Below, piece by piece: positions 16,517 to 53,430 of a stretch of DNA of 64,000 bases. Each line of letters starts with the position of its first letter. Position 1 is the stretch's first letter. This DNA comes from Gammaproteobacteria bacterium. Its GTDB lineage: Bacteria > Pseudomonadota > Gammaproteobacteria > Steroidobacterales > JACDCP01. Made by a program: the position numbers and the translations under genes. The stretch covers positions 766-64,765 of the forward strand of contig DATLFD010000003.1 of assembly GCA_035524935.1 (NCBI GenBank), in the 5' to 3' direction. The notes beneath the pieces were generated by a model, which did no database searches, was not told the origin of the DNA, and saw only the letters and a list, made by a program, of their open reading frames with translations.

Positions 16517-16524
16517 TAGAACGC

Positions 16525-16532
16525 CCCCTGCG
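16525..16532. repeat. left copy of the 8-bp target-site duplication CCCCTGCG
   Basis: Identical to 19707-19714 and abuts the left terminal inverted repeat. Confidence 0.6.
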
Positions 16533-16553
16533 GGTAGTGGGTTAGTTTGAAAC
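16533..16553. repeat. left terminal inverted repeat GGTAGTGGGTTAGTTTGAAAC
   Basis: Matches the reverse complement of 19686-19706 at 18 of 21 positions. It begins GGTAGTG, like IS1 ends (GGTAATG/GGTGATG). Confidence 0.65.
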
Positions 16554-16600
16554 TCGCTCGCCTTGACGATTCGGGCTTCATCTGTCAGGCTTTTTTCACC

Positions 16601-16864
16601 ATGCCTGACCGTTCAAGCAAGCGCAAGAAACGACCCCGCGACGTGAACGCGCTGGCTGCGTCCGTAGTAGCCGAAGCTGTAGGCGATGCACCAGCCGAGC
16701 CGGAGCGGCCGGACGATGGCAAAGACCCCGCTGCGGTCGCTCTGGGGCGCAAGGGCGGTCTCAAGGGCGGTAAGGCTCGGGCAACTAAGCTAAGCGCTCA
16801 GAAAAGAAAAGAGATTGCCAGAAAAGCGGCTAAAGCAAGGTGGCGCAGCCACCAGAGTGATTAG
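16601..16864 (+). CDS. small basic protein with a KGG-type motif
   Basis: MPDRSSKRKKRPRD...ALGRKGGLKGGKARATKLSAQKRKEIARKAAKARW. The frame is open from TTG 16547, which lies inside the left TIR. No clear SD precedes ATG 16601. Confidence 0.45.
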   Translation: MPDRSSKRKKRPRDVNALAASVVAEAVGDAPAEPERPDDGKDPAAVALGRKGGLKGGKARATKLSAQKRKEIARKAAKARWRSHQSD

Positions 16865-17178
16865 CCAGTTGGCAATGGACCATACTCTTTCTCGTAATGC
16901 TCAATCTGCTTTTGCAAAATTCTTACAAGAGATTTCGCGTGCGCCGGAGAAGTAGAAACAACTACCTGCGGATCAATAAAAACTTTATTGCCCTCGGTAT
17001 CAACAGCTTGGCCTAAGGTCATTCTAACGTCGAACATGGTAGTTCGAACGCTAGCATTGTTTATGTAGAAAGAAGGTATGTCTTTGAGATCCCGTATGAA
17101 AACGGGCTCTATTACCTTCACGGTCTCTTTCGCAACTACAGGCTCGTTTTGCGTAGATTCTTCGGGTTTCTTAGGCAT
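16861..17178 (-). CDS. DUF3467-family protein
   Basis: 105 aa. FYINNASVRTTMFDVRMTLGQ...VVVSTSPAHAKSLVRILQKQIEHYEKEYGPL follows the DUF3467 pattern (Y.N......EF.LDF ... PEHAKRL...L...I..YE..FG). Its ATG is embedded in the stop region of the upstream XRE gene (8-nt overlap). Confidence 0.6.
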   Translation of the reverse strand: MPKKPEESTQNEPVVAKETVKVIEPVFIRDLKDIPSFYINNASVRTTMFDVRMTLGQAVDTEGNKVFIDPQVVVSTSPAHAKSLVRILQKQIEHYEKEYGPLPTG

Positions 17179-17734
17179 TTTGTGCTTCGCTTAGGATATC
17201 TGCAGGAGTGCTGTCCAATGTGAAGGGTTGCTGAGTTGCGATTCCAACATCGGCCCTAGGTATCGAGGGGGTATAGTCAGTTAATCCTCTGAAGTTATAA
17301 GTATTTGCCTTAAAGATGGGAACCACATTACTTTCCGCACTTTCGCCGGCCGGTCTCAAGCCTAGGTCGCTACCGAAATCCGGTACTTCAAGTTCTCTGG
17401 TTGAGAAACAAGCAGCCCTATCCGCTAACAAACTGAACGGAACGAAAGCCACGAGCAAGCCCACGTCAAACGCTGAAGCCAATTCCCGCAGCGTCTTTAG
17501 AGTGAAACTTCCATAACCTGGGCTCTCAAGGCGAGAGATTTGCGGTTGCGGCTTGTTGCACAATTCCGCTAAGTGTTCTTGTGTCCACCCTCGCAAATCT
17601 CGCATTCCCTTAATCTGAAAGGGAATGCCAATGTTGATAGCGTTCTCAACAAAAGCGTCGCGATATTCTTTGCTCTCAAGACTATCGACGATTTGTTCGC
17701 GTCGAGAAATTATGTCTTTCCGTTCTACCTTCAT
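17171..17734 (-). CDS. XRE-family helix-turn-helix regulator (putative antitoxin)
   Basis: KEYRDAFVENAINIGIPFQIKGMRDLRGWTQEHLAELCNKPQPQISRLESPG is a typical HigA/XRE N-terminus. It has a C-terminal extension of about 90 aa. Confidence 0.8.
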   Translation of the reverse strand: MKVERKDIISRREQIVDSLESKEYRDAFVENAINIGIPFQIKGMRDLRGWTQEHLAELCNKPQPQISRLESPGYGSFTLKTLRELASAFDVGLLVAFVPFSLLADRAACFSTRELEVPDFGSDLGLRPAGESAESNVVPIFKANTYNFRGLTDYTPSIPRADVGIATQQPFTLDSTPADILSEAQNA

Positions 17735-18107
17735 TGCTATCTAACCTTTCGCGTCTGTGTTTTGCTTTCGTGCAAACTCCTTCAGGTACAAACCTTTTGT
17801 TCTGCTCCTCTGCTCCAGCAAGAATAGTTATCTGGCCACGATTGGGACCGTAATATGCGATGGGGCGAAATTGCTGTCCACCGTAGGGCACTATCAATTC
17901 GATAAGGTCGGCGCAGTCTTTGCCTTTCTGTTTTTTAAGCTTGCCGACATAGGGACGCCGTAAAGGTTCACGCGACGCCTCTATGTTGATGATGGCTGTA
18001 TCGACCGCATTTCGTGCCGCATCTGATAAGCCGTGCAACCACGCTGACACCACATTAGTCCCACGGTGATCAACGTAGTCGAGCACTTCCCAAGTTCGTT
18101 CTAGCAC
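17682..18107 (-). CDS. Gp49/HigB-like RelE-ParE-superfamily toxin (addiction-module killer protein)
   Basis: GTG start. WEVLDYVDHRGTNVVSAWLHGL...VGKLKKQKGKDCADLIELIV...FRPIAYYGPNRGQITILAGAEEQ follows the Gp49 pattern. It lies upstream of the XRE gene and overlaps it by 53 nt. Confidence 0.7.
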   Translation of the reverse strand: MLERTWEVLDYVDHRGTNVVSAWLHGLSDAARNAVDTAIINIEASREPLRRPYVGKLKKQKGKDCADLIELIVPYGGQQFRPIAYYGPNRGQITILAGAEEQNKRFVPEGVCTKAKHRRERLDSNEGRTERHNFSTRTNRR

Positions 18108-18109
18108 GA

Positions 18110-18164
18110 TATATCATTATTGCTATACTGTCGAGTCGTCCGGCAGTATATCATTATTGTTATA
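18110..18164. promoter_or_regulatory. pair of 18-bp AT-rich direct repeats enclosing a short palindrome (operator/promoter candidates)
   Basis: TATATCATTATTGCTATA (18110-18127) and TATATCATTATTGTTATA (18147-18164) match at 17 of 18 positions. TATACTG-N13-CAGTATA lies between them. The pair sits between the divergent toxin operon and the transposase. Confidence 0.45.
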
Positions 18165-18225
18165 TTCCGGTCCCGAATTGGCCCAAACGCTTGACCGGTC
18201 AAGCAAGATGGGTCATAATGATTCC

Positions 18226-19053
18226 ATGAACAAGCTATCCCTAGAGCGTCGTGCTCAGATTCTACGCTGCTTGGTCGAGGGTAACAGCATACGGTCAACA
18301 GTTCGCATGACTGGAGCGGCCAAGAATACGGTCGTGAAGCTGCTGGCGGATGTGGGCCCGGCCTGCGCCGAGTATCAGGACAGGCAGCTACGGCACCTGC
18401 CCTGCCGCCGCGTCCAGTGTGACGAAATCTGGTCATTTTGCTACGCCAAGGAGAAAAACGTCCCGGCTTCTCGGAAGGGCCAGTTTGGCTACGGTGACGT
18501 ATGGACGTGGACCGCCCTTTGCGCCGAGACCAAGCTGGTGCCGTGCTGGCATATCGGGCCGAGGGACGCCGAAGCGGCCCGCCAGTTCATCGGGGATCTC
18601 GCCGGCCGGCTGAATAACCGCATCCAGCTAACGACGGACGGCCACAGGGCCTACCTCAACGCGGTGGAAGGTGCTTTCGGCGCGGACGTGGATTACGCAC
18701 AGCTGGTCAAGGTCTACGGGGAGGCCCCGAAGTCTGCCGAGCGGAAATACAGCCCGTCAGAGTTCGTGTGTGCGTCCAAGAGCGCCGTCGAGGGATACCC
18801 AGACCCCCGGCACGTCAGCACCAGCTTTGTCGAGCGCCAGAATCTGACCATGCGAATGCAGATGCGCCGCTTCACCCGGCTGACCAATGGCTTCTCGAAG
18901 AAAATCGACAACCTGGGCCATGCGGTTTCACTACACTTCATGCACTACAATTTCGGCCGCATTCACCAGAGCCTGAGGGTTACGCCGGCCATGGAAGCCG
19001 GGGTCTCGGATCATGTCTGGTCAATGGAGGAAATTGCAAAACTGGCCGGCTGA
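18226..19053 (+). CDS. IS1-family DDE transposase (single-ORF type with N-terminal HTH)
   Basis: Frame of ORF 18157-19053. Probable start is ATG 18226 (MNKLSLERRAQILRCLVEGNSIR), just after TTGACC-N17-CATAAT (18191-18219). The blocks CDEIWSF, TTDGHRAY and VERQNLTMRMQMRRFTRLTNGFSK parallel IS1 InsB MDEQWGY, TDGWPLY and [24 protein letters not shown]. Confidence 0.75.
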   Translation: MNKLSLERRAQILRCLVEGNSIRSTVRMTGAAKNTVVKLLADVGPACAEYQDRQLRHLPCRRVQCDEIWSFCYAKEKNVPASRKGQFGYGDVWTWTALCAETKLVPCWHIGPRDAEAARQFIGDLAGRLNNRIQLTTDGHRAYLNAVEGAFGADVDYAQLVKVYGEAPKSAERKYSPSEFVCASKSAVEGYPDPRHVSTSFVERQNLTMRMQMRRFTRLTNGFSKKIDNLGHAVSLHFMHYNFGRIHQSLRVTPAMEAGVSDHVWSMEEIAKLAG

Positions 19054-19104
19054 GTTAAACTTGTGGTGGGCATTCCCGCCCATTAGCAAACATGGAGAAT
19101 TGCG

Positions 19105-19296
19105 ATGCCCCAATATCGAAAAAAGAAAGGCAATGACACATGGCACTGGTGCAGGAATTGCAGCAATTGGCCGAAGGGTACGGAAGGTGTTGATTACACA
19201 GCTACAACAGTACCGGCCGGCAAACGACCGTCCAGTGGTGAACTCGACAATGAGTGCCTTTCCAAAGAAAAGCGCGGCGATTGCACCACCGGATAA
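19105..19296 (+). CDS. small Cys-rich protein (WHWCxNCSxWP motif)
   Basis: 63 aa, MPQYRKKKGNDTWHWCRNCSNWP...GELDNEC, with GGAG 8 nt upstream of the ATG. It overlaps the convergent ORF 19194-19685 by about 100 nt. Confidence 0.5.
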   Translation: MPQYRKKKGNDTWHWCRNCSNWPKGTEGVDYTATTVPAGKRPSSGELDNECLSKEKRGDCTTG

Positions 19297-19685
19297 AGCG
19301 CAGCAAAGAAAACACGAATTGATACAGTCCAGAGGTCTCTGCGATTATCGAAGTCGATAACCGTTACTTCCTGGCCCCAAGCCGTATATTCCCGCGATAC
19401 TGTCTCTATCCCAGGCAGGCGAGCAAGCACATGGCCCCAACGGTCAAAGGCTTCGCTCGCCGCCTGATCGAGCCATAACCATAGCCCTCCATTTTGGGCA
19501 TCGTGTCCGGCGCATGATTGTAGTGTGCAAACGCCTGGGATAGCGTTCAGAAAATCGCATAACGGGACGATCTCGATGTCGGCAAAGCCCTCACCGCCAC
19601 GGCCTGCAGCGGGCAGAGCGTTACTTCGCTTTGTTTCCCATTCCCGCAGTTCTTCTGCCTTCGCTTGTGGGGTAAGGTATTTCAC
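19194..19685 (-). CDS. hypothetical protein, no family recognised
   Basis: 163-aa ORF with a GTG start immediately inside the right TIR and no obvious SD. The composition is protein-like (VPLCDFLNAIPGVCTLQSCAGHD...). Confidence 0.35.
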   Translation of the reverse strand: MKYLTPQAKAEELREWETKRSNALPAAGRGGEGFADIEIVPLCDFLNAIPGVCTLQSCAGHDAQNGGLWLWLDQAASEAFDRWGHVLARLPGIETVSREYTAWGQEVTVIDFDNRRDLWTVSIRVFFAALYPVVQSPRFSLERHSLSSSPLDGRLPAGTVVAV

Positions 19686-19706
19686 GATTCAGACTGACCC
19701 ACTACC
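19686..19706. repeat. right terminal inverted repeat (reverse complement GGTAGTGGGTCAGTCTGAATC)
   Basis: Matches the left TIR at 18 of 21 positions. Confidence 0.65.
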
Positions 19707-19714
19707 CCCCTGCG
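19707..19714. repeat. right copy of the 8-bp target-site duplication CCCCTGCG
   Basis: Identical to 16525-16532 and abuts the right TIR. Confidence 0.6.
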
Positions 19715-19729
19715 TGCGCCCCCCGCAGC

Positions 19730-19759
19730 TTGTGGATAACTGCGAGTCACAGGTATAGA
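19730..19759 (+). promoter_or_regulatory. putative dnaA promoter overlapping a perfect DnaA box
   Basis: TTGTGG (19730-19735), 18 nt, then TATAGA (19754-19759). TGTGGATAA at 19731-19739 is the exact reverse complement of the DnaA box TTATCCACA, the classical autoregulation arrangement. Confidence 0.45.
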
Positions 19760-52950: not shown

Positions 52951-53430
52951 TCAGCGCTGCCCTTGCGCGGCCTGGCGCGTTTCCGCCTGCAGGTACAGGG
53001 CGTCGAAGTTCATCGGTTGCAGCAACAGCGGCGGGAAGCCGCCGTCGCTGACGAGGCCCGCGATCGTCTGGCGCGCGAACGGGTAGAGCATGCTCGGGCA
53101 GTAGTTGCCGACCAGCGGCTTGAGCTGATCGGTGGGGTAGTCCTTGAGCACGAAGATGCCGGCCTGCTGCAGCTCGATGAGGAAGGCGACCGTGTCGCCC
53201 ATCTTCGCTTCGACATTGACGTTGAGCACGATCTCGTGCGTGCTCTCATCGAGCTTGCTCGTCGTCGAATTCAAGGTCAGCGTGATCTTCGGATTCCACT
53301 CGCCCTTGAAGATGCCCGGACTGTTGGGCGCCTCGAACGAGCAATCCTTGATGTAGACCTTTTGCAGCGAAAGCTGCGGTGACGCCGTCGGTTGATCGGT
53401 GAATCGTGTGGATACCGCCTCTTCTGCCAT
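52951..53430 (-). CDS. secB: protein-export chaperone SecB
   Basis: Start is ATG 53430. LSLQKVYIKDCSFEAPNSP...EIVLNVNVEAK...LYPFARQTIAGLVSDGGFPPLLLQPMNF. Confidence 0.9.
   Translation of the reverse strand: MAEEAVSTRFTDQPTASPQLSLQKVYIKDCSFEAPNSPGIFKGEWNPKITLTLNSTTSKLDESTHEIVLNVNVEAKMGDTVAFLIELQQAGIFVLKDYPTDQLKPLVGNYCPSMLYPFARQTIAGLVSDGGFPPLLLQPMNFDALYLQAETRQAAQGQR

Follow-up and report, generated by a model that had tools for sequence, protein, structure and literature searches.

A conserved operon of a HigB1-like toxin, a long XRE antitoxin and a modular third gene, carried by an IS1-like element: a candidate relative of toxin-antitoxin-chaperone systems without SecB

Tripartite toxin-antitoxin-chaperone (TAC) systems, exemplified by HigB1-HigA1-SecB-TA of M. 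tuberculosis (Rv1955-1957) and by HigBAC and CmdTAC of E. coli, encode in this order a toxin, a helix-turn-helix (HTH) antitoxin and a small third protein. In M. tuberculosis the SecB-dependent TAC system has HigB1 as its toxin. TAC systems have recently been shown to be phage sensors and, to our knowledge, they have so far been defined by SecB-like chaperones. Here we describe an operon of the same order found in a gammaproteobacterial stretch of 64,000 nucleotides (contig DATLFD010000003.1 of assembly GCA_035524935.1), hereafter the window, to which all positions refer. A HigB1-like toxin gene, a gene for a long XRE-HTH protein and a modular third gene, which in the window belongs to the DUF3467 family, form a conserved operon that is divergent from a transposase gene and is the cargo of a transposable element.

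The likeness to TAC systems goes beyond gene order. The top solved relative of the window toxin family is HigB1, and the antitoxin carries a long, variable C-terminal extension reminiscent of those of the ChAD antitoxins, which vary in length and sequence and show no significant mutual similarity (PMC5105189). Both kinds of system are also modular, combining a toxin-antitoxin (TA) 'warhead' with an exchangeable third component (bioRxiv 10.1101/2024.02.24.581848). The third gene is SecB-like in TAC systems, whereas here it encodes a DUF3467 protein of about 105 aa with a beta3-alpha fold, which is not SecB-like, and related cassettes may have a member of either of two other, unrelated families in this slot. 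Two-component Gp49/HigB-HigA pairs, such as HigBA of S. pneumoniae (6AF3/6AF4) and HigBA2 of V. cholerae, share the toxin-first order, the XRE HTH antitoxin and a Gp49-like toxin with a long basic C-terminal helix (PMC9098466); the present operon differs from them by an antitoxin about twice as long, by a conserved, probably translationally coupled third gene, and by a toxin devoid of two conserved basic residues. A literature search turned up neither a tripartite HigBA module without SecB nor this trio of genes. The operon is composed as follows.

17682-18107, minus strand: Gp49/HigB1-like toxin gene, 141 aa, GTG start (from the open reading frame (ORF) list, Pfam and the family profile)
17171-17734, minus strand: XRE-HTH antitoxin-like gene, 187 aa (from the ORF list, HTH_3 and structure-profile matches)
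16861-17178, minus strand: DUF3467 gene, 105 aa, third in the operon (Pfam PF11950)

A first-pass annotation, made from the letters of the window, had proposed these three overlapping minus-strand genes as a possible tripartite TA module, and the ORF list confirmed their positions and overlaps. The toxin and XRE genes overlap by 53 nt and the XRE and DUF3467 genes by 8 nt (AATGCCTAA), the DUF3467 ATG lying inside the XRE stop region. The three genes lie in an islet of 43-52% GC in a genome of about 65% GC, and the cassette is placed between yidC-yidD-rnpA-rpmH and dnaA. The Pfam searches that the annotation had recommended returned Gp49 (E=1.7e-4, 22.0 bits, cut-off 23.9), HTH_3 (E=8.2e-9) and DUF3467 (E=3.6e-9, 37 bits against a cut-off of 25), the last score placing the third gene within its family. 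PADLOC and PHROGs searches returned no informative names.

Conservation of the cassette was assessed on loci fetched with the XRE alignment alone, so that the neighbour counts are not biased towards any neighbour. The 66 genome loci obtained, together with two metagenome loci and the window, gave 69 rows, and the 68 of these with a clear XRE match are the basis of the counts. The loci span the Chloroflexota, Acidobacteriota, Nitrospirota, Planctomycetota, Thermodesulfobacteriota, Myxococcota, Alpha- and Gammaproteobacteria, and other groups. A homologue of the window-type toxin lies directly upstream of XRE in about 64/68 loci, and the gene directly downstream matches the DUF3467 profile in 33-34/68, well beyond what chance would give. 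In nearly all loci the third gene overlaps the XRE stop or starts within about 35 nt of it. The idea of a tripartite module thus finds support in a conserved cassette, in synteny across at least 8 phyla, in the gene overlaps and in a natural fusion of XRE with DUF3467. The synteny counts, with this gene order and spacing seen in dozens of loci from many phyla, refute chance adjacency of the three genes, a view that has nothing in its favour beyond the frequent overlap of small ORFs.

The third position of the cassette is modular. Besides DUF3467, the gene downstream of XRE belongs in 23-24/68 loci to one unrelated family of about 220 aa (for example L033:3564-4235 and L042:3567-4229), and in a single locus, from a Thermomicrobiales metagenome-assembled genome (MAG), to DUF6941 (L036:3500-3946, PF22091, E=1.2e-14); any of the three can thus be found in otherwise closely related cassettes. 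The 220-aa family had no match in Pfam, PDB, PADLOC or PHROG, and hhalign revealed no relationship between it and DUF3467. On a tree of the XRE N-terminal domain the two main third-gene types are mixed, with about 16 changes among 56 rows, and close, well-supported sister pairs carry different third genes (for example L049/L056). These switches and mixed pairs indicate that the third slot has been exchanged frequently while the toxin-antitoxin pair stayed in place. A constant backbone with a swappable third gene constitutes a natural experiment in module exchange.

The toxin-first HigBA layout recognised by the annotation was borne out by family profiles, which match HigB1 for the toxin and HigA and HipB for the XRE protein. 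A toxin profile built from 28 sequences, that of the window included, had as its top PDB match M. tuberculosis HigB1 (7nbu_Y and 7awk_A, E=2e-4, positions 4-117, full length), and this match assigns the family to the Gp49/HigB branch of the RelE superfamily. In this family the toxin gene commonly overlaps the XRE start, and one protein (P0015) is a fusion of toxin and XRE. The Arg-rich toxin tail had been regarded as atypical, a view that does not hold, since the basic C-terminus, apart from some 7 additional residues, aligns with a conserved C-terminal segment of the family. The counterpart of this segment in Gp49-like HigB toxins is their long alpha-3 helix, typically positively charged and in HigB1 in contact with the P-site tRNA (PMC9098466).

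The XRE family profile matches the HTH structures of HigA2, HipB and HigA. Relatives of the XRE protein are numerous and measure about 170-200 aa, with a conserved N-terminal part of about 130 aa followed by a variable C-terminal tail, and a length of about 180-200 aa, which had been held to be atypical of an antitoxin, is therefore the norm of the family. The conserved blocks "FDVGL.VRFVPFS.L" and then "(L).VP.F..D" precede a final stretch of about 59 residues with no conserved motif. Tails of different members cannot be aligned by BLAST even when the N-domains are 82% identical and the third-gene type is the same. The median tail charge is -1; the window tail is acidic and includes the stretch NVVPIFKANTYNF.

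Upstream of the toxin start lie two 18-bp imperfect palindromes, TATATCATTATTG(C/T)TATA, 37 bp apart, the proximal copy abutting the start codon.

18110-18127, unstranded: proximal operator-like palindrome, 18 bp, 2 nt from the toxin start codon, assigned to a direct repeat family
18147-18164, unstranded: distal operator-like palindrome, 18 bp, 37 bp upstream of the proximal copy

A pair of the TATAAC-N6-GTTATA type occupies the same place in L047, L034, L042 and L046, and a TATAAT-N6-ATTATA variant is found there in L075 and L078, in L075 as a single copy; in all, seven independent elements carry palindromes at this position. These palindromes are probably the XRE operator.

The DUF3467 protein of the window has 533 relatives at E<=1e-3 among representative proteins, although a word-index homologue search found the query itself as its sole match. 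An AlphaFold2 model, computed with 28 cassette homologues as input, reached a predicted local distance difference test (pLDDT) value of 90.5 and displays a beta3-alpha fold, with antiparallel strands at residues 41-46, 51-62 and 65-76, a long helix at 78-99, and an unstructured N-terminal segment of 40 residues. Foldseek searches found nothing significant in a viral library and nothing under E=0.2 in the PDB, where the best matches were the beta-sheet-plus-helix folds of PC4/Sub1 and PUR-alpha (E 0.2-0.4, TM to target about 0.43). A literature search found nothing on DUF3467 function. The domain is also able to form tandem arrays, as nine DUF3467-like stretches occur in a protein of 1,346 aa (P0158).

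We propose, with a probability of roughly 45%, that antitoxin stability is controlled by the third protein, through binding to the antitoxin's disordered tail, by analogy with the action of SecB-TA on ChAD. In this scheme an XRE dimer would bind the palindromes and autoregulate the operon, the conserved N-terminal 130 or so residues of XRE would neutralise the toxin, and the toxin, by homology, would be a ribosome-dependent mRNase. DUF3467, translationally coupled to the antitoxin, would bind its disordered, fast-evolving C-terminal tail of about 59 aa and govern antitoxin stability or solubility, as a non-SecB analogue of the TAC chaperone. Loss or titration of DUF3467, for instance by a phage protein or under stress, would then free the toxin, and the module would serve its element for addiction or stabilisation.

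Several lines of evidence support such a TAC-like arrangement. The toxin has the TAC toxin HigB1 as its top profile match; the antitoxin bears a long hypervariable C-terminal extension, a possible counterpart of ChAD; and the XRE stop and DUF3467 start overlap by 8 nt. A natural single-chain fusion also exists (P0258, 283 aa), which comprises XRE, its tail and DUF3467, although this protein is a singleton with a deletion in the XRE domain; its tail is predicted to be disordered (pLDDT 32-39, versus 65-78 in the HTH region, alignment depth lacking for both). Finally, on the DUF3467 tree the TA-linked copies cluster (2 changes, where shuffling gives a mean of 27) and are very long-branched, whereas chromosomal copies evolve slowly. 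The clustering leaves room for a single origin of the TA-linked copies, long-branch attraction being a caveat to this grouping. The picture of a fast-evolving branch dedicated to TA within a housekeeping family recalls the relation between SecB and SecB-TA, and this parallel also speaks for the TAC-like reading.

Other results weigh against this reading, the first of them coming from the tails themselves. Neither a tail motif nor tail similarity was found to track the third-gene type, the few similar pairs (three or four) being weak; tails paired with DUF3467 are not distinguished by motif or charge from those paired with the 220-aa family; and tails and DUF3467 proteins show no charge complementarity (Spearman -0.23, p=0.2). 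When the fusion protein P0258 was folded as a stand-in for the complex, its DUF3467 domain was confidently predicted, and the model displays no induced strand and a single helix of moderate confidence. The loose resemblance of DUF3467 to SecB put forward by the annotation is likewise unsupported, since both methods applied were negative: hhalign against a SecB alignment gave probabilities of 0.04-0.05%, and no SecB chain appeared among the 50 Foldseek PDB matches listed. The Pfam family is PF11950, not the PF02556 of SecB, and we know of no chaperone activity of DUF3467. A canonical secB gene does occur in the window, at about 52975-53388 on the minus strand (PF02556, E=2.6e-52), unlinked to the cassette.

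The same lack of a tail motif would suit a different role, in which DUF3467 acts on the toxin, as a second inhibitor, activator or specificity factor, or binds nucleic acid, the top Foldseek matches being the single-strand binder folds of PC4/Sub1 and PUR-alpha. Those matches are not significant, and the toxin family does not vary with the third gene, which argues against a toxin-specific partner; moreover, DUF3467 is found fused to the antitoxin and not to the toxin. We regard this role as very unlikely.

The distribution of DUF3467 also counts against the proposal: the family is broad, and the majority of its genes are not TA-linked. A DUF3467 match was present in 90 of 401 genomes of the Pseudomonadota, the phylum of the window, and in 0/31 loci sampled did it have an XRE neighbour. 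The non-TA copies in these genomes adjoin MazG and rpsB, or precede an HlyD-like protein of about 480 aa; in L002-L008 the same-strand gene after DUF3467 encodes such a protein of GAF/HlyD-like type. The only other DUF3467 genome of the window's class (L032:3983-6552) has the gene overlapping by 4 nt the start of a 766-aa protein with WHD and AAA+ ATPase domains. Among 301 Acidobacteriota genomes 173 had a match, and of the best 30 of these 3 follow an XRE-toxin pair and 27 are not TA-linked, 18 of the 30 preceding, on the same strand, a multi-pass membrane protein of about 485 aa (L121-L147). In another lineage DUF3467 was found between MazG and rpsB, and the conserved synteny of such 'housekeeping' genes might point to the general role of the family.

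The toxin copy of the window raises a further difficulty for the proposed mechanism. Taken alone it scores slightly below the Gp49 cut-off (PF05973, 22.0 bits against 23.9), and it is the sole member of its family (n=66) without either of two basic residues. Position 72, R or K in 60/66 members, is I in the window, and position 102, K or R in 51/66, is Q; profile alignment equates these positions with R68 and K95 of HigB1, and of the three basic active-site residues R68, R77 and K95 only the equivalent of R77 (R81) is present. In HigB1 the substitutions R68A and K95A each abolished toxicity on their own (PMC9098466). The absence of both equivalents suggests that the window toxin may be attenuated and perhaps not toxic. 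This copy could accordingly be a decaying, non-toxic remnant in an operon that supplies only an XRE regulator and DUF3467, as the two replacements and the sub-cut-off score would suggest. All three ORFs are nevertheless intact, with overlaps typical of the family, E70, R81 and R118 are retained, and K104 and R105, two or three residues past position 102, might compensate. In addition, the surrounding element has terminal inverted repeats intact at 18/20 positions and a perfect target duplication, signs of an insertion that is probably rather recent. Decay of the window copy is considered improbable.

The operon resides in a 3,176-bp transposable element, probably of the IS1 family, that occupies positions 16532-19707, in the rpmH-dnaA intergenic region, and comprises or is flanked by, in addition to the three genes and the two palindromes, the following features.

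16526-16531, unstranded: left copy of the probable 6-bp target-site duplication, CCCTGC, repeated at 19708-19713; boundary ambiguous by 1-3 C
16532-16551, plus strand: left terminal inverted repeat, 20 bp, GGGTAGTGGGTTAGTTTGAA, 18/20 complementary to 19688-19707
16547-16864, plus strand: small basic ORF rich in KGG (105 aa), a conserved passenger in convergent orientation to the operon
18157-19053, plus strand: IS1-like DDE transposase, divergent from the toxin, start probably at ATG 18208 or 18226
19194-19685, minus strand: extra passenger ORF, 163 aa, between transposase and right repeat (ORF list)
19688-19707, minus strand: right terminal inverted repeat, 20 bp, TTCAGACTGACCCACTACCC, pairing with the left repeat at 18/20
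19708-19713, unstranded: right copy of the target-site duplication, CCCTGC, directly after the right inverted repeat

In two genomes of the same genus (G401 and G402) homology to the window ends at about 16521 and resumes at about 19716, and in both the two flanks are only 13-15 bp apart, so that they represent the empty site; together with the inverted repeats and the target duplication this identifies a transposable element. It is single-copy in the assembly of the window. A near-identical repeat, GGGTAGTGGGTCAGTTTGAA, bounds elements of 2.6-3.4 kb in L047 (a Scalindua MAG), L034 (a metagenome contig), L045 (a Chloroflexi MAG) and L118 (a Mesorhizobium loti plasmid); the inverted repeats, the transposase and an operator-like TATAAC-N6-GTTATA palindrome are all found again in other phyla. 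The M. loti plasmid genes are annotated as "IS1 family transposase", "helix-turn-helix domain-containing protein", "hypothetical protein" and "histone H1", the last being the equivalent of the KGG-rich ORF. The window transposase itself scores below threshold for both NCBIfam IS1 (5.9e-15, 55.7 bits, cut-off 100) and Pfam DDE_Tnp_IS1 (23.0, cut-off 24.1), and its plasmid homologues, with 65-66% DNA identity, are annotated 'IS1 family transposase'.

Compared with IS1-family insertion sequences, the element shares the transposase annotation of its homologues, the short terminal inverted repeats and the target duplication; it differs from them by four or five passenger genes, by a transposase score of 55.7 against the 100-bit cut-off, and by a duplication apparently of 6 bp. 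A literature search on IS1 elements with passenger genes found nothing relevant. A precedent for the cargo is provided by Tn3-family transposons, in which Gp49-HTH_37 TA pairs adjoin the transposition genes and have been proposed to stabilise the transposon (PMC7157771). The same TA family is here also found inside a transposon, beside and divergent from the transposition gene, a placement that suggests element stabilisation. The carrier here is small (2.6-3.4 kb), IS1-like and bounded by 20-bp inverted repeats, in contrast to a Tn3-family transposon with its resolvase, and the module differs in being tripartite. Near-identical inverted repeats of the carrier in Planctomycetota, Alpha- and Gammaproteobacteria show that the movement of TA modules as integral cargo is not confined to Tn3-family transposons but extends to small insertion sequences.

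Other genes of the element are also conserved. A transposase homologue occupies the same divergent position in at least 26/68 loci, at least 17 related loci have a homologue of the KGG-rich ORF placed convergently behind the third gene, and both occur with either third-gene type. The KGG-rich ORF had no Pfam match. The 163-aa ORF had no homologue in the 68 related loci and only weak sub-threshold matches (TYW3-like, 16 bits), and it appears to be an extra passenger unique to the window copy.

With a whole unit that is a transposon with other conserved passengers, DUF3467 and its alternates might instead be regarded as cargo, or as an accessory factor of the IS1-family element, perhaps for transposition or host interaction, that is co-transcribed with a plain two-component HigBA pair and takes no part in controlling the toxin. 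The occupation of the third position by unrelated proteins and the occurrence of DUF3467 mostly outside TA contexts fit such a role. The third gene, however, overlaps the XRE stop or lies within about 35 nt of it in nearly all loci, is also present where there is no transposase within 3 kb, and is found fused to XRE, and an accessory factor would leave the extra tail of the antitoxin unexplained. An accessory role of this kind is judged unlikely.

A broader form of the TAC-like proposal would have DUF3467, the 220-aa family and DUF6941 as interchangeable, SecB-unrelated 'addiction' or sensor subunits that gate a HigB1-like toxin through a co-inherited disordered tail, and that travel between phyla on an IS1-family transposon as a stabilisation and/or anti-phage module. 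In this full extent the proposal is doubtful, and it is put forward tentatively. If the TAC-like reading is true, the TAC concept would extend to a widespread cassette in which the TAC toxin family is joined by a long-tailed antitoxin and a third protein other than SecB, chaperone-addicted TA systems would have evolved more than once, and the uncharacterised DUF3467 would gain a testable role, its first function.

Additional observations concern the element and its surroundings. The insertion (16522-16531 / 19708-19745) lies about 25 bp upstream of a DnaA-box-like site, TTGTGGATAAC, that is kept in both same-genus genomes, and this proximity means that the insertion may affect the dnaA promoter or its autoregulation. 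In L119, a plasmid of Acidiphilium multivorum, a related IS1-family transposase is flanked by a pair consisting of a RES-domain toxin and an MbcA/ParS/Xre antitoxin, so that this transposase lineage may carry other TA types. A perfect palindrome, TTGACCGGTCAA, is located at 18189-18207, a transposase promoter-like site, and L034 has the near-identical CTTGACCGCTCAAG in the equivalent place; a direct copy of TTGACCGGTCAA (17/19) occurs at 16603-16621, inside the KGG-rich ORF, and the TTGACCGGTCAA palindrome may be a second regulatory site of the element.

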